The notes beneath the pieces are model-generated. The model worked only from the letters and a program-made list of their open reading frames with translations, had not been told where the DNA came from and did not search any database. Positions 3,676 through 19,618 of a stretch of DNA of 19,618 bases are shown one piece after another. Position numbers and translations under genes: made by a program. The stretch is from a virus (taxonomy: Duplodnaviria; Heunggongvirae; Uroviricota; Caudoviricetes). Numbering within the stretch: position 1 is the first letter of the stretch; each line of letters starts with the position of its first letter. The stretch lies in the IMG/VR virus record IMGVR_UViG_2684622669_000001, positions 1-19,618 of that record. One strand, given 5' to 3'.

Positions 3676-5874
3676 ATGGCAGAAAAAAAGATGACTGACT
3701 GGCATCGCAAGGTGCTGTGCAACTTTGATAATGCCTGGTCAGCAACGCAGGATATGCGTGAGCAGATTATTGAGGCTCAACGTTTCGTCCGGGTATCCGG
3801 CGCACAGTGGGAAGGCAGCACAAACGCTGGTTACTCATTTGATGAAGGCAGGTTTGAGCATTACCCGCGCTTTGAACTGAATAAGATTGCCCGTGAATGT
3901 GATCGCATCATTGGCGAGTATCGACAGAATCGCATCAGCGTTAAATTCAGGCCGAAGGATGACAAGGCATCGGAAGCGTTAGCCGAAAAGATGAACGGCA
4001 AATTCCGCGCTGACTATCAGGAAACATCAGGTGGCGAAGCGTGTGATAACGCATTTGATGATGCTGTAACGGGCGGATTCGGTTGTTTCCGCATGTGTGC
4101 CGATTACGAAGATGAAATGGACCCAAGTAACGAGCAGCGACGCATCAGCATTCTTCCTGTTTACGACCCGGCGACATGCGTCTTCTTCGATCAGGACAGC
4201 AAACAATATGACCGCTCTGATGCTATGTGGGCTATGGAAATGTTCTCCATGACGCCTAAAGCGTTCGAGGCTGAATACCCTGATTCCATTGCGGCAAGCC
4301 TTTCTCGGGATGACACTGGTACTCAGTATGACTGGTCAACGCCTGACGCCATCTATGTTGGACGTTACTACGAAGTTCGCATAGAGAAGGTGAAGCTCAC
4401 GGCGTGGCGCAACCCTGTTAGCGGAGAAACGGCAATCTATGATGAAGAGCAAATCAAAGATATTGTCGACGAGCTGACCGATGGTGCATTCGAACTGATT
4501 GGCGAGAGAACGGTGAAGAAACGCCGAGTTTATTGCGGTCTTCTTTCTGGCGCTGAATGGCTGGAAGAACCGAAGCGTATTCCTGGCGAACATATTCCTC
4601 TCATCCCGGTATATGGGCGTCGCTCATTTGTTGATAATCAGGAGCGAATCGAAGGCCACGCAGCAAAAGCGATGGATGCACAGCGTCTTGAGAACCTGAT
4701 GGTTTCCATGATTGCAGATAACGCTACTCAGGCTGGCGGTGATGGCATTCCTATCGTGGATGTTGATTTCATTCCCGGCCCATTAATGAATCACTGGGCA
4801 GAGAGGAATAAGAAAAGACCTGCAGTTCTTCCTATGACCAGCAAGAAGGACAAAAACGGAACAGTCATTTCAGAAGCTCAGGTTGCTGGCTGGACACCTC
4901 CGACACAAATGCCGCCAGCTCTTGCCGGGCTATTGCAGTACACCGGAACGGCTATTCAGCAAATTACAGGTGCGTCGCAGCTTGAGAACATGCCGAGCAA
5001 CGTCGCTACTGATACCGTTGATAGCATTTTTAACCGGATGGACACGCAGTCCTATATCTACATGGACAACATGGCTAAATCTATGCGTCGCGCTGGCGTT
5101 GTGTGGCTTTCTATGGCGCGTGAAGTCTATGGCAGCGATACGCCGATGCGTATCGTTAATGAGGACGGCAGCGATGACGTGGCGCTGATGACTGGTGAAG
5201 TGGTTGACCGTCAGACAGGGCAGGTTATCGCGCTTAACGACCTTTCGCAGGGTAACTATGAAGTGACTGTCGATGTCGGTCAGTCGTTCGCTACTCGCCG
5301 TGATGCAACGGTTAAGTCGTTACTTTCCATGCTGGCACTTATCCCACCAGGAACGCCGAAGCACGACCTTGTATCGTCGATGATTCTCGACAATATGGAC
5401 GGCGAAGGGATGGACGACCTGAAAGAATACAACCGCAATCAGTTGCTTCTGTCTGGAGTTATCAAGCCGAGAACACCAGAAGAACAGCAGATGGTTGAGC
5501 AGGCGAAACAACAACAGGCCAGTCAGCCAGATCCGGCTATGGTTGCAGCGCAAGGTCAGCTTCTTGCAGGTCAGGCTGAATTGCAGAAAGCGCAGAACGA
5601 GCAGGCAGCCATTCAGGTTAAAGCATTCCAGGCACAGACTGATGCTCAGGTTGCAGCGGCAAACGTTGTGAAAATCCTCGCATCTGCCGATAGCCAGCAG
5701 AAATCTGATATCCGCGAGGCTCTGAAACTGCTCGGACAGTTCCAGCAACAGCAAGGAGACAATGCCCGTGCTGATGCAGAGCTTGTCCTGAAAAGTCAGG
5801 CACAGGGTCATGCGCAGCGCATGGACATCAGCAGCATCCTGCAAAAATCAACTCAGCAACAACCACAGCAGTAA
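3676..5874 (+). CDS. Portal protein (P22 gp1-like) with C-terminal Gln/Ala-rich helical extension
   Basis: 732 aa (P22 portal is about 725 aa). Starts 1 nt after the terL stop. The last ~130 residues are Q/A-rich, as in the P22 portal barrel. Confidence 0.9.
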   Translation: MAEKKMTDWHRKVLCNFDNAWSATQDMREQIIEAQRFVRVSGAQWEGSTNAGYSFDEGRFEHYPRFELNKIARECDRIIGEYRQNRISVKFRPKDDKASEALAEKMNGKFRADYQETSGGEACDNAFDDAVTGGFGCFRMCADYEDEMDPSNEQRRISILPVYDPATCVFFDQDSKQYDRSDAMWAMEMFSMTPKAFEAEYPDSIAASLSRDDTGTQYDWSTPDAIYVGRYYEVRIEKVKLTAWRNPVSGETAIYDEEQIKDIVDELTDGAFELIGERTVKKRRVYCGLLSGAEWLEEPKRIPGEHIPLIPVYGRRSFVDNQERIEGHAAKAMDAQRLENLMVSMIADNATQAGGDGIPIVDVDFIPGPLMNHWAERNKKRPAVLPMTSKKDKNGTVISEAQVAGWTPPTQMPPALAGLLQYTGTAIQQITGASQLENMPSNVATDTVDSIFNRMDTQSYIYMDNMAKSMRRAGVVWLSMAREVYGSDTPMRIVNEDGSDDVALMTGEVVDRQTGQVIALNDLSQGNYEVTVDVGQSFATRRDATVKSLLSMLALIPPGTPKHDLVSSMILDNMDGEGMDDLKEYNRNQLLLSGVIKPRTPEEQQMVEQAKQQQASQPDPAMVAAQGQLLAGQAELQKAQNEQAAIQVKAFQAQTDAQVAAANVVKILASADSQQKSDIREALKLLGQFQQQQGDNARADAELVLKSQAQGHAQRMDISSILQKSTQQQPQQ

Positions 5875-8811: not shown

Positions 8812-10230
8812 ATGCCGATTCAGCAACTTCCGCTTATGAAAGGTGTCGGCAAAGACTTCCGAAACGCCGACTATATCGACTATCTGCCAGTGAATATGCT
8901 GGCTACACCCAAAGAAATCCTCAACAGCAGCGGATATCTTCGCTCATTCCCGGGCATTGCCAAACGTTCTGATGTGAATGGTGTATCGCGCGGCGTCGAG
9001 TACAACATGGCGCAGAATGCTGTTTATCGCGTGTGTGGTGGCAAGCTCTACAAAGGGGAAAGTGAAGTCGGTGACGTCGCCGGAAGTGATCGTGTATCAA
9101 TGGCGCATGGTCGGACATCACAGGCGATAGGTGTTAATGGTCAACTGGTCGAATACCGCTATGATGGCACGGTTAAAACCGTCTCAAACTGGCCTACTGA
9201 CAGCGGATTCACACAGTACGAGTTAGGTTCAGTTCGCGACATTACGCGCTTACGTGGGCGTTATGCGTGGTCAAAAGACGGCACTGATTCATGGTTTATC
9301 ACTGACCTTGAAGACGAATCGCATCCTGACCGCTACAGCGCACAATATCGCGCAGAATCGCAGCCGGACGGCATCATCGGTATCGGGACATGGCGAGACT
9401 TCATCGTCTGCTTTGGTTCATCGACTATTGAATATTTTTCCCTGACAGGTGCAACCACCGTTGGTGCCGCTTTGTATGTCGCACAGCCATCGCTGATGGT
9501 GCAGAAAGGCATTGCCGGAACTTACTGCAAAACGCCGTTTGCTGATTCGTATGCGTTCATCAGCAATCCGGCAACAGGTGCGCCGTCTGTGTATATCATC
9601 GGCTCTGGTCAGGTATCACCAATCGCCAGCGCGAGCGTTGAGAAAATCCTCCGCTCCTACACTGCTGATGAACTGGCTGATGGCGTGATGGAGTCTCTGC
9701 GCTTTGATGCTCATGAGTTGCTGATTATCCACCTTCCTCGCCATGTTCTCGTGTACGACGCATCTTCAAGCGCCAATGGTCCGCAATGGTGTGTACTGAA
9801 AACAGGCTTGTATGACGATGTGTACCGCGCTATCGACTTCATTTACGAAGGAAATCAGATAACGTGCGGCGATAAGCTGGAATCGGTTATCGGCAAATTG
9901 CAGTTCGATATCAGCAGCCAGTACGACAAGCAACAGGAACACCTGTTGTTTACTCCGTTGTTCAAAGCGGATAACGCAAGAGTGTTCGACCTTGAGGTTG
10001 AATCTTCAACTGGCGTTGCGCAGTACGCTGACCGCCTGTTCCTCTCTGCAACCACTGACGGAATCAATTACGGACGTGAGCAGATGATTGAACAGAATGA
10101 ACCGTTCGTTTACGACAAACGTGTTTTGTGGAAGCGAGTAGGGCGCATCAGGAAAAATGTCGGTTTCAAATTGCGCGTTATCACGAAGTCACCTGTAACT
10201 CTGTCTGGCGCTCAGATAAGGATTGAGTAA
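8812..10230 (+). CDS. Tail accessory / hub protein (P22 gp10-like)
   Basis: 472 aa, the same length as P22 gp10. The N-terminus [49 protein letters not shown] is near-identical to my recollection of gp10. SD gaggtga. Confidence 0.9.
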
Positions 10231-10931
10231 TGGCGGATTCGAATCTCAATACACCTGTTATTGTTCAGGCGACGCGGCTCGATACATCAGTCCTTCCACG
10301 CAATATCTTCTCGCAGTCATATCTGCTGTACGTTATTGCACAGGGTGCTGATGTTGGTAACGTGGCTAACAAAGCCAACGAGGCAGGACAGGGCGCTTAT
10401 GATGCACAAGTCAGGAACGATGAGCAGGATGTGATTCTCGATGACCACGATGCAAGAATCACCGCAAACACAAAAGCGATAAATCTCCTTGAGGTCAGGT
10501 TAACAACCGCCGAAGGGAAGATAGTCGTACTGCGTAGCGATGTTGATTACTTGCTGGATGAGGTTATCGATATTCAGGCGCATCTTGTCACTGTTGACAA
10601 AAGACTGGAGGGCGTAGAAAGCGATGTATCTGACATTAAGAGTGATTACGTATCGAAAACCGTAACCGAATCGCAGTCTCTTGCGTCACCACTGAATGTA
10701 AAAACATCATATTCAGTTGATGGAATTCAGGTTGTTGGAGCAAGAAATACCGGATGGACTGCAGCCACAGGTACGCCACTTCTTGGCTCATTCAACGCTA
10801 ACCAGTCATACACTGTCGGCACTACGTACACACAATCCGAAGTCGCAGCTCTCGCTACAGGTTTGCAGCAGGCGCGGCAGCGTATTCTGGCGCTTGAAAC
10901 GGCACTTAGATTACATGGGCTGATTGACTGA
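10230..10931 (+). CDS. Tail needle (P22 gp26-like), trimeric coiled-coil plug
   Basis: 233 aa, the same length as P22 gp26. The N-terminus [39 protein letters not shown] and the C-terminal ...[19 protein letters not shown]... match gp26 from memory. TAATG overlap with the upstream gene. Confidence 0.9.
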
Positions 10932-11386
10932 TGATTACATTCAAACCAACGCGAAACATCGACCTGATAGAAGCAGTCGGAAATCACCCTGACATTATCG
11001 CCGGGAGCAACAACGGTGATGGATACGACTACAAACCTGATTGCCGTTACTTTGAGGTGAACGTGCACGGGCAGTTCGGCGGCATTGTTTACTATCAGGA
11101 GATTCAGCCGCTGACATTCGATTGCCACGCCATGTACCTGCCAGAGGTTCGCGGCTTCAGCAAGGAAATCGGGCTGGCGTTCTGGCGATACATTCTGATT
11201 AACACCACCGTTCAGTGCGTCACATCGTTCGCTGCACGCAAATTCCGCCACGGTCAGATGTATTGCGCAATGATTGGCCTTAATCGTGTAGGAACCATCA
11301 AGAAATACTTCAAAGGCGTGGATGACGTGACGTTTTACAGCGCCACACGCGAAGAACTAATCGACTTCCTGAATCACGGGAGATAG
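10931..11386 (+). CDS. gp14-like virion/ejection-associated protein (by synteny)
   Basis: 151 aa. Occupies the gene-14 position of the P22 order, with a TGATG overlap to the needle gene. Assignment is by position, not by sequence recollection. Confidence 0.6.
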   Translation: MITFKPTRNIDLIEAVGNHPDIIAGSNNGDGYDYKPDCRYFEVNVHGQFGGIVYYQEIQPLTFDCHAMYLPEVRGFSKEIGLAFWRYILINTTVQCVTSFAARKFRHGQMYCAMIGLNRVGTIKKYFKGVDDVTFYSATREELIDFLNHGR

Positions 11387-11388
11387 CC

Positions 11389-12081
11389 ATGTTATATGCA
11401 TTTACGCTGGGCAGAAAACTGCGCGGCGAGGAACCTTATTGCCCTGAAAAAGGCGGGAAAGGTGGCAGTTCTGATAAAAGCGCAAAGTATGCCGCAGAAG
11501 CTCAGAAGTATGCCGCAGACCTGCAAAATAAGCAGTTCAACACCATCATGAACAACCTGAAGCCGTTTACTCCTCTGGCTGATAAGTATCTCGGCAGCCT
11601 CGAGAACTTATCGTCTCTGGAAGGGCAAGGTCAGGCACTTAACCAGTATTACAACTCTCAGCAGTACAAAGATCTTGCTGGTCAGGCTCGCTATCAGAGT
11701 CTGGCGGCAGCGGAAGCAACAGGTGGATTGGGTTCCACCGCAACCAGTAATCAGTTAGCAACAATCGCACCAACGCTTGGTCAGCAATGGCTATCTGGAC
11801 AAATGAACAATTACAACAACCTGGCAAATATCGGTCTTGGCGCTCTTCAGGGGCAGGCAAACGCCGGGCAAACATATGCCAACAACATGAGTCAGATTTC
11901 ACAGCAAAGCGCGGCGCTGGCTGCGGCAAACGCCAACCGACCGTCAGCATTGCAGCAGGGGGTTAGTGGTGCTGCATCCGGTGCGCTTTTGGGTGGTGGC
12001 ATAGCCAGTGCTCTCGAGCTATCAACTCCGTGGGGTGCTGGTATCGGTGCTGGTCTTGGTCTGCTTGGCTCGTTGTTTTAA
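11389..12081 (+). CDS. Ejection (internal virion) protein, P22 gp7-like
   Basis: 230 aa (P22 gp7 is about 229 aa). Q/N/A/G-rich low-complexity protein with a Gly-rich hydrophobic C-terminus (GGGIASALELSTPWGAGIGAGLGLLGSLF). SD gggaga. Confidence 0.7.
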   Translation: MLYAFTLGRKLRGEEPYCPEKGGKGGSSDKSAKYAAEAQKYAADLQNKQFNTIMNNLKPFTPLADKYLGSLENLSSLEGQGQALNQYYNSQQYKDLAGQARYQSLAAAEATGGLGSTATSNQLATIAPTLGQQWLSGQMNNYNNLANIGLGALQGQANAGQTYANNMSQISQQSAALAAANANRPSALQQGVSGAASGALLGGGIASALELSTPWGAGIGAGLGLLGSLF

Positions 12082-12091
12082 GGGGTAATCA

Positions 12092-13441
12092 ATGGCTACG
12101 TGGCAACAGGGTATTAATTCTGGTGGTTTTCTGGCTGGCATCGGTACGCAAAATGAGAATGCGCCAAAGGCAAGCGACATTAACGCAACGCTTGGTCTGA
12201 TCCGCGAAAACAATGAGTTGGCTCGCTCAGGTGCAAATAACGTTGGTCTGACCGCGTTACGTGGTCTGGCTGGAGTTGCTGATATTTATAAGCAGGAACA
12301 GCAACAGAAAGCGATTAATGCGTTCAATAAGGTTCATGCTGATGCATGGGCTTCTGGTGATCCATCGGGACTATTTAAGTTTGCCAAGGAAAATCCAGCG
12401 TTTGTTGCGCAGGCACAACAGGCGTTTTCCGGTCTTAATGAGCAGCAACGCAACGATATGGGCGATTTAGCCATGAGAGCTAACGTCGCTCTTTCTCAGG
12501 GACCGGAAGCCTACAGTAAATTCATTACTGACAACAAGGACAGGTTAAATCGCGTTGGCGCTAATGCTGACTGGATGATTCAGACAGGTATCCAGAATCC
12601 AGAGCAGCTATCACACATGCTGACTACTATGTCTCTCGGTGCGCTTGGACCAGAAAAGGCGTTTGCTGTTCAGGATAAGATGGTTGGTCGCCAGCAGGAG
12701 CAGCAAAGAATTAAAGAAACCATTCGCAATAATGACATGACGAATGCGAGGGCTATTAGGGGTCAGGATCTTTCCTATAAGGCTCAAATGGCAAGACTGA
12801 ATCACGACAAGTATGTGTTTAAGCAGTCACAGGCGGCCCTTGAAAGAGCAGGACAACTTCAGGATATGGATGTTTTGTCTCTTAACTCACAGATAGCAGC
12901 GACGGGAATTGATCCGCTAACCGGTAAAGCTGCAACGTCAGCCAGAATGTCTCAGGCTAAGAGATGGCTTGATGGCAACAATAATTACAACAATGCGTTA
13001 ATTACTGGTGAGCGAGGGATAGAGAAAATTGATTCTTTGCTTGGTAAGAAGGAGCTTGAAGGTATTGGTCGCTTCGAAGGAAGAAATATAGATGGCTTCA
13101 CAAGTGCTGAAGGGCTTGCAAACCGTAATGCGATAGAAGAATTAAAGTCGGGGGCGTTTGTCCAGAACGTGCAGACTATGCGAGGTATGGGTAGCCTCTC
13201 CAATGCTGAAGGCCAAAAACTGGAAAACCTGATCGCGAAACTCGATATAACACAGCCTGAAGAGGTCGTCAGAAAACAGTTATCTGAAATCCGATCGCAA
13301 TATTCTGTATTTCAAAAGGTTGCAGCAAGGGAGGCTGAATCAATGGGATATAGTTCATCAGGTTATGACACATATGTTAGTGAGCGAAAATCAGGAAGCG
13401 ACAGCAATAAGTCCGGTTTCTCGTCTTTATGGGGTGATTAA
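12092..13441 (+). CDS. Ejection protein, P22 gp20-like
   Basis: 449 aa (P22 gp20 is about 471 aa). Position in the operon; SD aagggg. Confidence 0.7.
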
Positions 13442-15609
13442 TGGCTAAAGCATGGAAAGATGTTATCGCTTCTCCACAGTATCAGGCGTTAACTGAAGAA
13501 CAGAAAGCACAGGCTCAAGCGCAATATTTTGATGAGGTTGTTGCCCCTAAGGCTGGTGACAAATGGGCTGAAGCAAGAGATCAGTTTTATGCAGCATACC
13601 CTCCGCCTCAGCAGCAGAAAGAAGAACCATCATTGATGCAACAAGCTGGCGATTGGCTCACTGGTGGTCAAAGTGCAGGGCAAATTGCAGAACAGGCTGG
13701 TCGTGGTCTGGTAAACATACCATTTGACGTATTGCAGGGTGGCGCAAGTCTGATTAATGCAATCAGCCAGGGGCTTGGTGGCCCCAAGGTTTTGGATGAT
13801 GTTTATCGCCCTGTCGATCGACCGACAGACCCTTGGGCGCAAGCCGGTGAAACATTTGGGGGGTATCTCCTGCCAATTGGCACAGCGGCAAAAGCTGCTG
13901 GAGCGACAGCAAAGCTCGCAGGAGACATCGGTTCCGCAGGAAACATGATTGCAGGTTCTCTTGCTGATGCTGCAAATCAGGAGGGCGATTTTGCACAAAA
14001 TGCTGCCATTAATGGTGGTATCAATATTGGTGCTCAGGGGATACTTTCTGGGGCTGGAAGGATCTTAACCTCTAAATCACCTCAAGTTCTTGGTGGCGGG
14101 GCAATAAATTCCGCTGCTGATGTTTCGAAAATGGCAAAGTCTGGTACAGGAAGAGAGATTATTGCCAGACAGTCAGCTAATGTGTCAGACGAAATAGCAA
14201 AAGCAGCAGATACTGCTGGAATAGATATCAACGCATTAACTCCTGGCATGAGATCAGGTAGTCGTGGTCTTGCTCAGGCGGAGGGGATTCTGGCGTCAAA
14301 GCCCGGAATTACACAGGATGCACACACCAAAGCATTCAGTGAAATAGAGTCGAAATTTAACTCAGCATTGGATGAGTTTGGGGCTGAAGCAGGAACTGCA
14401 TCAGAAAAAAGTGCAGCCATAAAACAAAGGGTTTTGGCAAGTATTGATAAAATGAAAAATTCAGAAAAGGCCGCATGGGATAGCGTCCGCTCCACGATTC
14501 CTGACGCAAAGGCCAGAATGTCAAACCTGAACGCTACAATTCAGGGTGATATTTTGGCTGGCATGCCGCTAACTCCTGAGATGAAACAATTCGCATCTGC
14601 TTATGCTAAAACTGGTAAAAAAGGAATCACGTTTGATGCCATGAAGGCATGGCGAAGTAAACTTGCTGACGCAGAGCAGAAGTATATAAGGTCTGGTGAG
14701 GCAAATACGGCAAGGCGCATGGCTGAGCTTCGTGATGCAGCAACGGAAGATATGCGCATAATGGCTCAAAATGGCGGTTTTCTTGATGACTGGCAAAAAG
14801 CTAATGATCTGTCAAAGGCAAGATTTACAGCACAAGAACAGGCTGAAGCAGCGTTTGGTAGAGACCTTGCAACTGATCAGTTGGTAACTAATGGATCTAA
14901 GGCGTTACAGGGTTCAGCAAAAAGTGGAACAGGTCAGTTCCATAAAATAATAAGCGCCCTACCTGAGTCGGAACGCGCGCCAGCAATTGCATCAATATTA
15001 CAAGATGCAATGTCGCAAGGGGTACGCGGAGGTAAGTCTGAAGAGGCTGGAATTAAGCATATCGCGACTATTCTTACCCCACAAAACGTGAAGGCAATTA
15101 GTCGATATTCTCCAGAACTTGGCAGGATTACAAGTTCATACGGAGAACTTGCACGAGCAGCAACAAAGCCACTTCGATATGTTGAACAGACAGGGCGATC
15201 TATGCCAGCCATTAGCACTCTTGAGAATGGCCTTCATCCAGTTTTAGAGAGCGCATTGTCTGGCGCTTTTAGAACTACTGGCACTATCGCAGGGTTCTCT
15301 GGAGGAGGCGTTATTGGAGCAATAGCGGGTGGCGCTGCAGGTGGGGCAATTGATGCAATGGCAAAAGGAGCGATAGCGAAATTATCCGCAACTAGAAGCG
15401 GTCGTTACGCTATTGAAAAGGCTGTTCAAGAGGCAACAAAGGCAGTTAAGGTTGGGGCAAGTGATGGCGCATTAGCGGCGGCGGAACGCAGATTTATGGC
15501 AAATAAGGCCGCCGTAAAAGCAATACGCGAGGCACTAGGAAACGAAGAGTTCCAGCGTTTAGCAAGAGCTGGAATTGTGGCATCGCTAAGCGGAATGGCA
15601 CAGGAGTAA
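13441..15609 (+). CDS. Ejection protein, P22 gp16-like (longer than P22 gp16)
   Basis: 722 aa, last gene of the virion operon, TAATG overlap with the upstream gene. Gly/Ala-rich hydrophobic segment near the C-terminus ([30 protein letters not shown]). Confidence 0.7.
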
Positions 15610-15939
15610 TTAGTCATCCATGGATGGATTGAGCTTATCTCGTGTTGATGTGGCAATTTTCCCAACATTTTTCAACCAAGATTTTAAGAAGGATATGTCG
15701 TCCTTAATATCATGAATATCCTCATTCTTTATACGATCAACCTTATCCTCTAAGCTCTCTATAGAACGCTCAATGCTAGACAGAGAGATTTTTAAGTCCC
15801 CTTGCTCACGTTCCAGTGAGGATTTGAGAGCACAATATTCGTTTTCTAGAATTCCTATTTTTTTTGTTAGAGAGTGCATTCGATACTCATACACCAAACC
15901 AGAAACGACTAATGCAGCCAACAGAAACCATTCAAGCAC
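15610..15939 (-). CDS. Hypothetical membrane-anchored coiled-coil protein (accessory gene)
   Basis: The track ORF 15610-16155(-) is trimmed to the in-frame GTG at 15937-15939, which has a perfect SD aaggagg 5 nt upstream. Predicted product has an N-terminal hydrophobic helix (LEWFLLAALVVSGLVYEY) then a heptad-like charged region. Stop abuts the gp16-like stop. AT-rich. Confidence 0.5.
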   Translation of the reverse strand: MLEWFLLAALVVSGLVYEYRMHSLTKKIGILENEYCALKSSLEREQGDLKISLSSIERSIESLEDKVDRIKNEDIHDIKDDISFLKSWLKNVGKIATSTRDKLNPSMDD

Positions 15940-15969
15940 ACCAACCTCCTTAGTTTTGAACAGGATACC

Positions 15970-16335
15970 ATGAAAAAAGTTAACATTGGAAACGTACCAA
16001 AGATGCTCGTTCCGCTCTTTGAGAGCGGTACAATTGTGTTTTGTAGAGACTTTCCAGAATGGCAACGCCTGCATCAAAAACTTGGCGTTGACGTGCATGA
16101 CTCGGACGCCAACGGAGCGTCTCATACAATGAGTAGCGAGAATGGTGTTTTGCATGTGATAGGCGTGTTCAATGGCAAACTATCTACTATTGCCCATGAG
16201 TGCGCTCACATGGCATTCGATATCTGCTCAAGGGTAGGTGTTGATGTTGAACTAGGAAGAGCCAACGAGACTTACTGCTACTTAATGAGCAGGCTTGTTG
16301 AGTTCTGCGAGCGACATATCAAAAAGCCGGAGTGA
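15970..16335 (+). CDS. Hypothetical HExxH-motif protein (putative minimal zincin-like metallopeptidase)
   Basis: 121 aa, SD agga 4 nt upstream of ATG. Contains IAHECAHMAFD (HExxH) with a downstream Glu in NETYCY, the gluzincin spacing. Stop codon sits in the loop of a terminator hairpin. Confidence 0.6.
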   Translation: MKKVNIGNVPKMLVPLFESGTIVFCRDFPEWQRLHQKLGVDVHDSDANGASHTMSSENGVLHVIGVFNGKLSTIAHECAHMAFDICSRVGVDVELGRANETYCYLMSRLVEFCERHIKKPE

Positions 16336-16343
16336 CCCGGCTT
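16324..16343. terminator. Bidirectional terminator between convergent accessory genes
   Basis: aagccgg (16324-16330) / agtgac / ccggctt (16337-16343). Flanked by aaaaa upstream and a T-rich stretch downstream, so both strands get a U-tract. Confidence 0.5.
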
Positions 16344-16348
16344 GATTA

Positions 16349-16528
16349 TTACTTTTTGCTGTCTGGAGTTCGCTTATCCAATACCCAGCCATGACCTGGC
16401 TTTGTTGTTGGTGGAAGCCTTTCGTTGTCCTTGACGGTTGCAAAATTGTCTTTCTTACCGCCGCGTGGGCCAACTTCTTGGTATATTCCGCCGTTTTTTC
16501 CTGTGTTTTCACCTGGTTTTTTCGCCAT
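16349..16528 (-). CDS. YjzC-like small protein (tentative family call)
   Basis: The track ORF 16349-16543(-) is trimmed to the second ATG (16526-16528), which has SD gagg 6 nt upstream. The 59-aa product MAKKPGENTGKNGGIYQEVGPRGG...ERLPPTTKPGHGWVL fits the YjzC pattern as recalled. Confidence 0.45.
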   Translation of the reverse strand: MAKKPGENTGKNGGIYQEVGPRGGKKDNFATVKDNERLPPTTKPGHGWVLDKRTPDSKK

Positions 16529-16610
16529 GATATACCTCAACATATACCCGTTATTGGGCGATTAAATATTGATCTCATTTTATAAGTAGTCAATATGGTC
16601 CAAAAAAGGC

Positions 16611-16645
16611 AAAAATTAACCCACCTTCAGGTGGGTTTTTTGTTT
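16611..16645. terminator. Bidirectional intrinsic terminator overlapping the 3' end of the Mnt-like gene
   Basis: aacccacc (16618-16625) / ttca / ggtgggtt (16630-16637), then tttttgttt on + and aattttt on the minus side. The Mnt-like stop codon (16627-16629) is in the loop. Confidence 0.6.
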
Positions 16646-16947
16646 AGCAGTTCTCTCAACTTTTCGTTCTGCTCTCTGAACTTTTCCTGTATTTCTTTTT
16701 GCATGGCGATAACCTGGGCTTGAAGTTGAACTAGCGCATCAACATTTAGCGGAACCGAGACGCTGTTGATTTTATCTGCTATTTCCCCGAGTGTATTTTC
16801 TGCATTCAAGGCATCTTCCAGTATCTGAACAATCTCTGAGTTCATTGATCTGCCGTTACGTTTGGCTCGTTCAGCTATAGCATCCCGCATTCCTGCAGGA
16901 AGCCTGATATTGAACCTATCCATTTCATGACTAGGGAACTTGCTCAT
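16627..16947 (-). CDS. Mnt/Arc-family ribbon-helix-helix repressor (Mnt-like paralogue 1) with extended C-terminal coiled coil
   Basis: 106 aa. FNIRLPAGMRDAIAERAKRNGRSMNSEIVQILEDAL matches the Arc/Mnt RHH motif (P22 Mnt: FNFRMPMEVREKLKFRAEANGRSMNSELLQIVQDAL, from memory). SD gagg. Divergent from the Arc-like gene. Confidence 0.8.
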   Translation of the reverse strand: MSKFPSHEMDRFNIRLPAGMRDAIAERAKRNGRSMNSEIVQILEDALNAENTLGEIADKINSVSVPLNVDALVQLQAQVIAMQKEIQEKFREQNEKLRELLNKKPT

Positions 16948-16989
16948 ATGACCTCAACGTAAAGATGTTCGCTAAACAATAGCACCAAC

Positions 16990-17029
16990 TTGACATCAAA
17001 ATAAATGGTGTTAAATTGGTTCTAGAACC
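16990..17029 (+). promoter_or_regulatory. Candidate rightward promoter (-35 TTGACA, -10 TAAATT) with overlapping palindromic operator
   Basis: TTGACA at 16990-16995, a 16-nt spacer, then TAAATT at 17012-17017. Perfect 12-bp palindrome GGTTCTAGAACC at 17018-17029, inside a 21-bp near-palindrome AATTGGTTCTAGAACCAAGTT (17014-17034). Confidence 0.45.
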
Positions 17030-17058
17030 AAGTTGGCATCATTGTGGGAGGATTACTT

Positions 17059-17232
17059 ATGAAAGATGTGCTTTACACAGGTCGTAAAAGTCAAAGTTTC
17101 CAGCTTCGTTTGCCAGCGCGAATGAAGGAGGAGATTAGACGTGTTGCTGAAATGGATGGAATTTCTATCAACTCTGCGATTGTGCAGCGACTGGCTAAAA
17201 GCCTGAGAGAGGAAAGAGCTAATGCCCAGTAA
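17059..17232 (+). CDS. Arc-like ribbon-helix-helix repressor
   Basis: The track ORF is trimmed to the ATG at 17059, with SD gggagg 7 nt upstream. 57 aa. FQLRLPARMKEEIRRVAEMDGISINSAIVQRL parallels P22 Arc (FNLRWPREVLDLVRKVAEENGRSVNSEIYQRV, from memory). Confidence 0.75.
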   Translation: MKDVLYTGRKSQSFQLRLPARMKEEIRRVAEMDGISINSAIVQRLAKSLREERANAQ

Positions 17233-17312
17233 AAATAGTGAAGCCCGGCAGTGCGTGAACACAAACCGGGCCTCTATGTCAGTAACCGTATGCAAGGAAA
17301 CTAACATGAATA
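17233..17312 (-). ncRNA. Candidate sar-like antisense RNA opposite the antirepressor ribosome-binding site (hypothetical)
   Basis: Minus-strand -10-like hexamers just inside the ant-like start (TACAAT = + 17312-17317; TATAAT = + 17328-17333). Minus-strand GC hairpin 17243-17272 followed by a U-rich stretch in the arc-ant spacer. Analogy to P22 sar RNA. Confidence 0.25.
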
Positions 17313-17932
17313 TTGTAGCAAAATCAGATTATAACTTCCACGGAGTTGAATTGGTGCCCACCCGTGATATGCATGGTGTTTGGTTTACATCATCTAATAT
17401 TGCATCTGCACTTAAATACGCAAATAGTCGTGCAGTAACAATGATTTATAACAAGTATAGCGATGAGTTTAGCGCCGGAATGACTCAGGTACTCGAAGTG
17501 AGTACCTCAGGAAATTATCGCAAAAAAGTGCGTGTTTTCTCACTACGCGGTGCCCACCTAATCGCGATGTTTGCTCGCACTCAGGTAGCCAAAGAGTTCC
17601 GCCGCTGGGTGCTGGATATTTTGGATCGGCAGGCAGAATGCTCACCGATTGCAAAACAGTTTACTGACGAAGAACTGGTTAATCTCTGCTACTTACAATT
17701 GTGGATGGAGAAGAGTCAACAAATGTGCAAACACATCTACCCAGGAATGAAGCAAATTGGTTCTGAGCTTTCAGGAAGGATTTACGATATTGCATATGAG
17801 ACTCGCTACATGTCAGAAGAAACCAAGAAATCACTTCTTCGTGAAATGAAGAATCTTGATACCAACAATTTTGTCGTAAAGAACGCTCAGCCAATGCTGG
17901 CAAAACTGCGCGGCGAGGAATGGATTCATTGA
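17306..17932 (+). CDS. Antirepressor-like protein (Bro-N / P22 antirepressor N-terminal-like domain)
   Basis: The track ORF 17222-17932 is trimmed to the ATG at 17306, with SD aagga 6 nt upstream. 208 aa. ...FSLRGAHLIAMFARTQVAKEFRRWVLDIL... is typical of Bro-N/antirepressor N-domains. Position after arc mirrors P22 arc-ant. Confidence 0.7.
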   Translation: MNIVAKSDYNFHGVELVPTRDMHGVWFTSSNIASALKYANSRAVTMIYNKYSDEFSAGMTQVLEVSTSGNYRKKVRVFSLRGAHLIAMFARTQVAKEFRRWVLDILDRQAECSPIAKQFTDEELVNLCYLQLWMEKSQQMCKHIYPGMKQIGSELSGRIYDIAYETRYMSEETKKSLLREMKNLDTNNFVVKNAQPMLAKLRGEEWIH

Positions 17933-17950
17933 TTGGTGCGCCGGACTGCG

Positions 17951-18026
17951 CAAAAAGAAAACCGCCAGTGTGCTGCTGGCGGCCTATGTCACACACTTAC
18001 TACCACATAAGGAATGCCTAATGACT
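17951..18026 (-). ncRNA. Second candidate antisense RNA with its own minus-strand terminator (hypothetical)
   Basis: Stem ccgccag (17962-17968) / ctggcgg (17976-17982). On the minus strand it is followed directly by GTTTTCTTTTTG (rc of 17951-17961); the + strand has no T-tract. Minus-strand promoter-like GTGACA-17 nt-TACATT inside the first codons of the 18021 gene. Confidence 0.25.
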
Positions 18027-18746
18027 TTTAAGAATGTAGCAAACATCGGATCCGTTGTCACGGATAAAACCATTGACAGCCAAAGTCTTCTGATGATGGT
18101 TAATGAAGCTCGCAAGTTATGTGGAGAGCCATCAGTACGTAACAACAAATTCATCGAGAAAATTGAGGATGAATTGGAAGGCGAGACCTACACAAAAAGT
18201 GTAGGTCGGAAAAACGGGGCTGACATTGATGTTATCTCCATGACTATCAAGCAGGCGCTTCGTGTTGCTGCTCGCGAATCTAAAGCAGTTCGCCGAACAC
18301 TTGTAGACAAACTTGAAAGTATGCAGGAAGCGCACATTAAAAGCGGTAAATCAGCGAGTGGACTTGTTGAGTATCGTCAAGCGCGAACATTGAAAATGAC
18401 GGTTGAAGCTGTTACCAATCTGTTCGATCTGATGCCAAATCTTGCGCCGGAGGCAAAGCAGACAGCGGCAGCAAGTATAATCAACCCGCTCGTTGGTTTT
18501 AATGCAATACCTCTTCCGGCAATAGAAGAGCATTACTACTCAGCAGGGGAGGTTGCAGAGCAGCTTGGAGTAACGGCCAACAAGATTGGTCGCATTGCTA
18601 ACGCAAACAACCTCAAAACTGAGCAGTACGGGAAGTTCTTCCTGGATAAATCTGCGCATTCCAGCAAACAGGTGGAAGCGTTCCGCTACAATGAGGAAGG
18701 TGTTAAAGCACTACAACACCTGATTCATGGGAGTAATGTTGCATAA
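18021..18746 (+). CDS. Second antirepressor-like / phage regulatory protein (Rha/ORF6N-like N-terminus, KilAC-like C-terminus; tentative)
   Basis: The track ORF 17970-18746 is trimmed to the ATG at 18021, with SD aaggaa 6 nt upstream. 241 aa. The N-terminal region (TIDSQSLLMMVNEARKLCG...) is Rha/ORF6N-like and the C-terminal region (YYSAGEVAEQLGVTANKIGRIANANNL...) is KilAC-like. Domain calls are from memory. Confidence 0.55.
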   Translation: MTFKNVANIGSVVTDKTIDSQSLLMMVNEARKLCGEPSVRNNKFIEKIEDELEGETYTKSVGRKNGADIDVISMTIKQALRVAARESKAVRRTLVDKLESMQEAHIKSGKSASGLVEYRQARTLKMTVEAVTNLFDLMPNLAPEAKQTAAASIINPLVGFNAIPLPAIEEHYYSAGEVAEQLGVTANKIGRIANANNLKTEQYGKFFLDKSAHSSKQVEAFRYNEEGVKALQHLIHGSNVA

Positions 18747-18967
18747 TGGCAAAGAAAAAATATGGCATTATGCCGCCAAGAATCAAAGGAAGAGCCAGGG
18801 TAAAAGGCGATGCTGGAAGGTATCACATTCTTGGAGTTCTGTGGCATGAGAGAGCTTTAATTTTAAGTAGACCTCATGGGTACATTGAAAAGGTATCTAT
18901 AGATAGAGTAGAGATTCTTCCCCTTACACCTGAAGAAGAAGAAACGTACGGACTTTTTGATAACTAA
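18746..18967 (+). CDS. Hypothetical small basic protein, translationally coupled to the upstream gene
   Basis: 73 aa. Start ATG overlaps the upstream stop (TAATG). Followed by a strong terminator. Confidence 0.45.
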   Translation: MAKKKYGIMPPRIKGRARVKGDAGRYHILGVLWHERALILSRPHGYIEKVSIDRVEILPLTPEEEETYGLFDN

Positions 18968-18973
18968 CCAGCT

Positions 18974-19004
18974 AAACCCGCTTAATCGCGGGTTTTTTCT
19001 TTTC
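18974..19004 (+). terminator. Intrinsic terminator ending the rightward accessory operon
   Basis: aaacccgc (18974-18981) / ttaatc / gcgggttt (18988-18995), followed by ttt and cttttc. The minus-strand Mnt-like stop codon (18982-18984) is in the loop. Confidence 0.6.
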
Positions 19005-19239
19005 TAAGGATATCAGCCGCAACTTCTTTTACTCGCTCCGAGATTAATGAGGCCAACCTCTCTTCTTCATCACGATACCCGCTTACAGGTGATGGTTTGG
19101 AGAGTGATTCTTCCATCGTAGCCACAATTTCGGAATTGATAGACCTGTTATTCATTTTTGCACGCTGCTTAATCTTAGCGTGCAACTCGTGCGTAAGCCT
19201 CAAGTGGAACTGCGCCTCATCGTATTTGCTGTACATCAT
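18982..19239 (-). CDS. Mnt-like ribbon-helix-helix repressor (paralogue 2, closest to P22 Mnt)
   Basis: The track ORF 18982-19320(-) is trimmed to ATGATG at 19234-19239, with SD gagg 5 nt upstream. 85 aa. QFHLRLTHELHAKIKQRAKMNNRSINSEIV...SKPSPVSGYRDEEERLA parallels P22 Mnt (...NGRSMNSELL...SKPSPVTGYRNDAERLA, from memory). Confidence 0.8.
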   Translation of the reverse strand: MMYSKYDEAQFHLRLTHELHAKIKQRAKMNNRSINSEIVATMEESLSKPSPVSGYRDEEERLASLISERVKEVAADILRKEKTRD

Positions 19240-19371
19240 CAATGCCTCACCAAATGGGTGGAATGGCATCGTAAAACCTACTGTACAAATCAACAATCGT
19301 ACCATTTCGGTATGCAACAAACATCAACCGTAGCCATGCTGCGGCGATTCCTTGTATCTGGAGCAAATTAA

Positions 19372-19530
19372 ATGACAGACATTACAGCCAATGTGATCGT
19401 ATCGATGCCTTCGCAACTCTTCACTATGGCGCGTTCTTTTAAAGCTGTAGCTAATGGCAAAATTTATATCGGTAAAATTGATACTGACCCAGTAAATCCA
19501 GAAAACCAGATTCAGGTTTATGTAGAGAAC
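19372..19530 (+). pseudogene. Tailspike gene, N-terminal head-binding domain only (interrupted by IS2)
   Basis: [53 protein letters not shown] matches the conserved P22/Sf6/HK620 tailspike N-terminus. After codon 53 the reading frame enters an IS end and no longer resembles tailspike. Confidence 0.85.
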
Positions 19531-19618
19531 TGGATTTGCCCCTATATTTCCAGACACCTGTTATCACTTAACCCATTACTGGCCTGCTGCCGCAGATATT
19601 CCCGTGGCGAGCGATAAC
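19531..19618 (-). mobile_element. IS2 (IS3 family) terminal inverted repeat and 3' end of the transposase gene, partial (continues beyond window)
   Basis: TGGATTTGCCCCTATATTTCCAGACACCTGTTATCACTTAACCC matches the IS2 terminal inverted repeat as recalled. The minus-strand translation of 19545-19618 gives ...[24 protein letters not shown], typical of an IS3-family OrfB C-terminus. Confidence 0.8.
19542..19618 (-). CDS. IS2 transposase OrfB C-terminal fragment (partial, 5' part outside window)
   Basis: Minus-strand frame ends with stop TAG (+ 19542-19544) after ...[26 protein letters not shown]. This ending is characteristic of IS3-family transposases. Confidence 0.7.

Follow-up and report, generated by a model that had tools for sequence, protein, structure and literature searches.

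Does a prophage whose virion genes look complete still possess a usable tailspike when the gene for that protein breaks off at the very edge of the available sequence, and what has become of the part that cannot be seen? This question is raised by a 19,618-bp stretch of DNA (the window), which makes up all of contig BBWB01000045.1 in draft assembly GCA_001515025.1; a second extract of the BBWB01000045.1 record (L005) is identical to window positions 9372–19618. An earlier note on this DNA described a tailspike gene interrupted by the insertion sequence IS2, with the body of the protein either at least one IS length away from its start or deleted.

By gene order, the prophage in the window is P22-like, with a predicted Lederbergvirus-type morphogenetic module. 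The canonical P22 order of terminase, portal, scaffold, coat, gp4, gp10, gp26, gp14, gp7, gp20, gp16, immI, and tailspike was found, and the Pfam matches ran in order through Terminase_3, P22_portal, P22_CoatProtein, P22_Tail-4, and Phage_stabilise, followed by P22_gp7, Inj_translocase, Phage_P22_gp16, Arc, and Bro-N/P22_AR_C. The virion genes upstream of the tailspike (terminase, portal, coat, gp4, and gp10) are full-length, and so are the ejection-protein genes gp7, gp20, and gp16. The first full open reading frame (ORF) of the contig, at 401–943, codes for a regulatory protein of the Rha type that carries an ORF11CD3 domain, and it is located upstream of both terminase genes (small and large).

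The tailspike gene stands at its usual place past the ejection-protein genes and the immunity (immI) region, a layout shared with P22 and Sf6. Its ATG is at 19372, and the plus-strand stub at 19372–19530 covers codons 1–53 of a P22-type tailspike. It encodes roughly half of the head-binding domain, which has about 110 residues and anchors the trimeric tailspike to the tail. Residues 1–53 matched profile positions 1–53 of the 113 positions of Pfam Head_binding (PF09008) with an E value of 1.3e-27. They also aligned end to end with the tailspike N-termini of P22 gp9 and Sf6 gp14 (PF09008; 1LKT, 2XC1, 7SG7): in the PDB, stub residues 1–53 paired with residues 1–53 of Sf6 gp14 (7sg7) and of the P22 tailspike (2xc1), and the alignments spanned residues 1–53 for 8tvr and 6–53 for 1lkt. 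Unlike P22 gp9 and Sf6 gp14, the window copy ends at residue 53 of this roughly 110-residue domain. In a search of 5,426 complete E. coli genomes, the sequence on the prophage side of the junction was up to 97.9% identical to intact genes annotated "phage tailspike / head-binding domain", and the homology to intact E. coli prophage tailspikes ended at query position 331, which is window position 19530, in every such match. The profile match and the end of homology both bear out the earlier note in placing the break after codon 53.

Where a complete head-binding domain followed by a receptor-binding or enzymatic body would be expected, the frame leaves the tailspike after residue 53 and continues as a chimeric 81-aa ORF on the plus strand (19372–19617), in which 53 tailspike residues are joined to 28 residues read from IS2 and the stop codon (19615–19617) lies inside the element. 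Judged by its reading frame, the tailspike within the window is a gene fragment (pseudogene). The exact 81-aa chimera is present on 5 contigs of public assemblies. The 28-residue tail read from the IS2 right end recurs as the C-terminus of many unrelated chimeric ORFs (proteins P0107, P0114, and P0074), and P0074 has part of it twice; the tail is a protein-level signature for spotting in-frame IS2 insertions in any gene.

The 88 bases beyond the stub, 19531–19618, are the right end of IS2 on the minus strand, cut by the contig end. The right terminal inverted repeat, starting TGGATTTGCCCC, lies exactly at the boundary, and OrfB (rve/DDE) reads inward from this end, only its last 24 codons and stop lying in the window. 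The segment shows 100% identity to copies in many E. coli records carrying the annotation "IS3-like element IS2 family transposase", with 1,130 records reaching at least 99% identity, and it matches base for base the first 88 positions of the complete 1,331-bp IS2 in another split tailspike locus (L001). The 24-residue minus-strand translation is identical to the OrfB C-terminus of complete 1,331-bp IS2 copies. Both the inverted repeat abutting the stub and the minus-strand transposase C-terminus, as the earlier note had read them, are confirmed by these identities. Set against IS2 as it is known (IS3 family; 1,331 bp, OrfA and OrfB, programmed frameshift, 5-bp duplication), the visible 88 of the 1,331 bases show no difference. 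A sigma-70-like promoter scan of 18700–19618 gave no site, hence none linking IS2 to the Arc-like gene next to the stub, and the idea of an outward promoter at the junction driving that gene was dropped.

The contig thus terminates 88 bases inside IS2. A multi-copy repeat is the usual place for short-read assemblies to break, and the query from this end had a median of 3 and up to about 42 matching places per E. coli genome; the break at 19618 is explained by the assembler having stopped at multi-copy IS2.

The far side of the same junction could be read on another molecule. When a large protein collection was queried with the 81-aa chimera, a one-residue variant (V49A) was recovered on the complete 5.17-Mb chromosome OZ039565.1 (locus L006), in which the junction is identical to that of the window and the prophage backbone is different. 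In L006, IS2 occupies 10160–11490 (1,331 bp), AGAAC flanks it on both sides, and the tailspike restarts exactly at codon 54 (EDGSHVPVSQ...). Its OrfB scored 713 bits against NCBIfam NF006918 "IS2 transposase TnpB" (cut-off 597), and its OrfA scored 276 bits against NF006928 (NCBIfam IS2 TnpA), also above the cut-off. When the element and one AGAAC copy were removed in silico, a continuous ORF of 981 aa resulted. Downstream of the element, the stretch with the tailspike remainder, neuO, and int is 99.3% identical to the siaK1-neuO-int region of the K1 phage CUS-3, and the restored 981-aa product is, by its sequence, a CUS-3-type endosialidase tailspike. A reading of L006 as a stub accompanied by a second complete tailspike gene proved wrong; the gene caller had begun the remainder at an internal ATG. 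The other IS end, the 5-bp duplication, and the tailspike remainder that the earlier note had sought beyond position 19618 were therefore all found at this same junction in L006, and not on the window contig. By analogy with L006, the AGAAC at 19526–19530 of the window would be the 5 bp duplicated beyond IS2. The partner contig of the window itself was not found: the downstream 892-aa truncated ORF occurred exactly on one contig only, that of L006, the truncated tailspike forms sitting within a 3,581-member protein cluster. The sequence GGGGGCCAGTCTAAGAAC is proposed as the query for the far-side partner among the other BBWB01 contigs.

Three further IS2-split tailspikes lie in complete genomes, each with a 1,331-bp element in the same orientation as in the window: after codon 81 in L001 (duplication CCAAG, restored ORF 623 aa), after codon 86 in L020 (CTGTG, 708 aa), and within codon 241 in L019 (ATTGT, 825 aa). 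Together with L006, all four fully resolved cases are simple insertions with a perfect 5-bp duplication and a remainder that restores a full-length ORF. For the window, a copy of IS2, an IS3-family element whose copy-out/paste-in transposition and 5-bp repeats have been described (PMC3299598), would have transposed into the tailspike of an otherwise intact-looking P22-like E. coli prophage, entering at the codon 53/54 boundary in the orientation that sets its transposase genes antisense to the tailspike. The remaining part of the 1,331-bp element, the second AGAAC, and the tailspike from codon 54 onward would then lie on another contig of the draft assembly. A simple insertion of this kind, with the remainder one IS length away as L006 indicates for the unseen side, is very probably what happened.

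The other outcome named in the earlier note, deletion of the remainder, would call for a second step, in which recombination between IS2 copies, by deletion or inversion, took the rest of the gene away or moved it elsewhere and left the stub alone beside the prophage. The contig does end inside IS2, the many matching places per genome would supply many recombination partners, and rearrangements mediated by IS elements are documented in E. coli (PMC5009759). Yet the resolved cases, four out of four, are simple, with matching 5-bp duplications and intact remainders, so that for the window tailspike separation by one IS length is much likelier than deletion, which we regard as improbable. The rest of the virion module in the window also looks undamaged, suggesting a young lesion. 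Simple insertion is accordingly retained as the explanation, and the lesion looks recent as well as simple, since the other virion genes are full-length and in the canonical P22 order.

A chimeric contig end, in which an intact tailspike was wrongly joined to IS2 reads during assembly, has in its favour that the window is a short-read draft contig stopping in a repeat. The identical junction nucleotide nevertheless occurs in independent assemblies with different flanking SNPs, and one of these is a complete chromosome with a proper 5-bp duplication at the junction. An artefact would hardly hit the same nucleotide repeatedly, one that coincides exactly with base 1 of the IS2 right inverted repeat, and the likelihood of such an error is very small indeed; a genuine insertion is the reading followed below.

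The recurrence of the junction raises the further question of whether IS2 prefers this site. The junction nucleotide and the orientation are identical in three backgrounds, namely the window, L003/L004 (a pair of assemblies with 99.99% mutual identity), and L006, whose backbones are 92–98% identical and whose immunity regions are unrelated or only 82% identical. Their 159-bp stubs differ pairwise at 6–8 positions, nearly all of them synonymous third positions, and several of these differences coincide with sites that are polymorphic in intact genes. Four complete genomes, all of which share the Clp-Arc-Arc-Ant neighbourhood of L006, have uninterrupted tailspike genes of 981 aa to which the L006 stub, V49A included, is 100% identical; the unoccupied site is thus known to exist, and the differences between alleles are older than the insertion. 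A further example of the empty site is given by CP082774.1 (L016 6060–6260). On these comparisons, the case for at least two independent IS2 insertions at the codon-53 phosphodiester is good, and a third is likely.

The competing account is that a single ancestral insertion spread by recombination to the three prophages, without independent hits on a hot spot. P22-like phages are highly mosaic, the IS2 copies of L003 and L006 are identical over 611 bp, and L003 was found by an exact-protein look-up that was able to return only synonymous variants, an ascertainment bias. However, the stub difference nearest to the junction lies only 6 nt away between the window and the others and 13 nt away between L003 and L006, which leaves too little homology for a crossover, and the L006 allele persists intact in the four genomes with the same neighbouring genes. 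The IS2 end of the window is also a different variant, which departs from L003/L006 at 2 of its 88 bases and agrees with L001 throughout, and the backbones stand 2–8% apart with unrelated immunity regions. Spread from one ancestor is thus the less likely account, at perhaps one chance among several, and independent insertion is preferred.

Seven events in the same orientation and reading frame were counted: IS2 follows codon 53 in three of them, and codons 61, 81, 86, and 99 in a single one each. Uniform choice would place three at one of 110 in-frame positions with a probability of about 0.003, a rough figure, as the query favoured chimeras like itself and the exact-protein look-up was able to return only synonymous variants. 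With some reserve, we lean towards the view that the codon 53/54 phosphodiester (...GTNGAG-AGAAC-GAAGAC, AGAAC being duplicated) may be a site- and orientation-specific hot spot for IS2, hit independently in at least two and probably three prophages. If this is true, IS2 would be a recurrent and predictable inactivator of tailspikes in P22-like phages, and the codon-53/54 site would offer a natural system for studying IS2 target choice. As a clue to IS2 target preference, the recurrent site is modest but testable, and it has no bearing on long-standing open questions. As to what might guide the element, intrinsically curved targets have been suggested as an IS2 preference (PMC3299598); a 40-bp composition profile of the empty site displayed no convincing abrupt shift at the target. 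The 9-mer AGATTCAGG at 19508–19516 matches the IS2 left inverted repeat, and target mimicry by this 9-mer was rejected as the cause of the preference: such a match has a probability of about 0.02 by chance, and it is not conserved in L003 despite the same insertion.

The consequence for the phage can be judged from P22, whose gene 9 mutants form DNA-filled particles that do not adsorb unless tailspike is added. Following this biology, no tail-binding tailspike would be made from the interrupted gene, and the induced prophage would yield DNA-filled particles without tailspikes that are unable to adsorb. The 53-residue fragment with its 28-residue nonsense tail would presumably be incapable of anchoring to the tail, and any products from downstream starts would be without the head-binding domain. 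The prophage is most likely unable to build infectious particles, and it should be scored as defective in this respect although its virion gene set looks complete. For the lesion to be reversed, the element would have to excise precisely or the prophage would have to recombine with another P22-like phage; a compatible tailspike could also come in trans from a further P22-like prophage resident in the cell.

How common such lesions are can be seen from the complete genomes. Among about 1,000 complete E. coli genomes with the tailspike N-terminus, IS2 was found near the start of a related tailspike in six cases in the same orientation and in three in the opposite orientation. RefSeq labels such genes "phage tailspike protein, incomplete" beside "IS3 family transposase". 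These pseudogenes are like the window in the element and in the gene family, and they are simple insertions with a 5-bp duplication, as is predicted for the window; unlike the window, they carry IS2 after codons 81 and 86 or within codon 241 in the same orientation, or, in three cases, in the opposite orientation. The codon-53 junction itself is absent from the complete RefSeq E. coli genomes and was not matched in species-representative genomes, and IMG/VR gave zero matches for the right junction, for the left junction with the duplication, or for the opposite orientation. Four metagenome junction matches were rejected as unrelated IS2-like insertion sites that merely follow GARAAY. Literature on CUS-3 or P22-like tailspikes interrupted by IS elements yielded no description of the codon-53 lesion, searches by accession of the three assemblies carrying the junction yielded no paper, and the paper on LF82 "Gally" reports no IS in the tailspike. 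The lesion is in kind an ordinary one, as the element, the gene, and this type of prophage damage are all known already; tailspike::IS2 lesions contribute to prophage decay repeatedly, though on a minor scale. In two metagenome contigs (L011/L012), a tailspike is split by IS2 after codon 99 (stub 4001–4297, chimeric ORF 4001–4384), and the prophage is a heavily deleted P22-like remnant with a terminase fragment almost adjoining gp16; damage of the same type is seen here at an older, decayed stage.

The prophage of OZ039565.1 is CUS-3-like, with a K1 endosialidase tailspike, neuO, and int at argW (L006 11491–15400), and an endosialidase gene split by IS2 in a CUS-3-type prophage may be of interest to researchers of K1 capsule variation. 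Among its intact relatives (L016–L018, about 9100–10114), the neuO acyltransferase gene is annotated with lengths of 336 and 840 nt. The neuO gene has known phase-variable heptanucleotide repeats, and the differing lengths fit such repeats.

The region between the antirepressor and the tailspike also merits description. The earlier note placed the insertion right next to a Mnt-like gene and the control region. An Arc/Mnt-type ribbon-helix-helix gene on the minus strand (18982–19269; Pfam Arc, 5.9e-15) does adjoin the stub, divergent from the tailspike and outside the lesion; it has weak HicB and FitA-like ribbon-helix-helix matches too, and relatives annotate an "Arc family DNA-binding protein" at its position. 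The actual mnt-arc-ant immunity region lies at about 16627–17932 and comprises a minus-strand Arc-family gene (16627–16947), a 57-aa Arc, and an antirepressor with Bro-N + P22_AR_C architecture (17222–17932); the gene at 18982–19269 is an extra Arc-family gene separate from it.

Between the antirepressor and this extra gene, the ORFs at 17970–18746 (258 aa) and 18746–18967 (73 aa) had no Pfam match; both are kept in relatives, where they are annotated as hypothetical (e.g., L002 4819–5768). A strong terminator-like hairpin at 18974–18995 (AAACCCGC-TTAATC-GCGGGTTT, followed by a T run) separates the plus-strand 73-aa ORF from the convergent Arc-like gene on the minus strand. From the antirepressor through the second Arc gene (17226–19384), the window shares 98% identity with Escherichia phage JEP4, an isolated phage. 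This similarity stops 13 nt into the tailspike ORF, suggesting a mosaic joint directly at the start of the tailspike.
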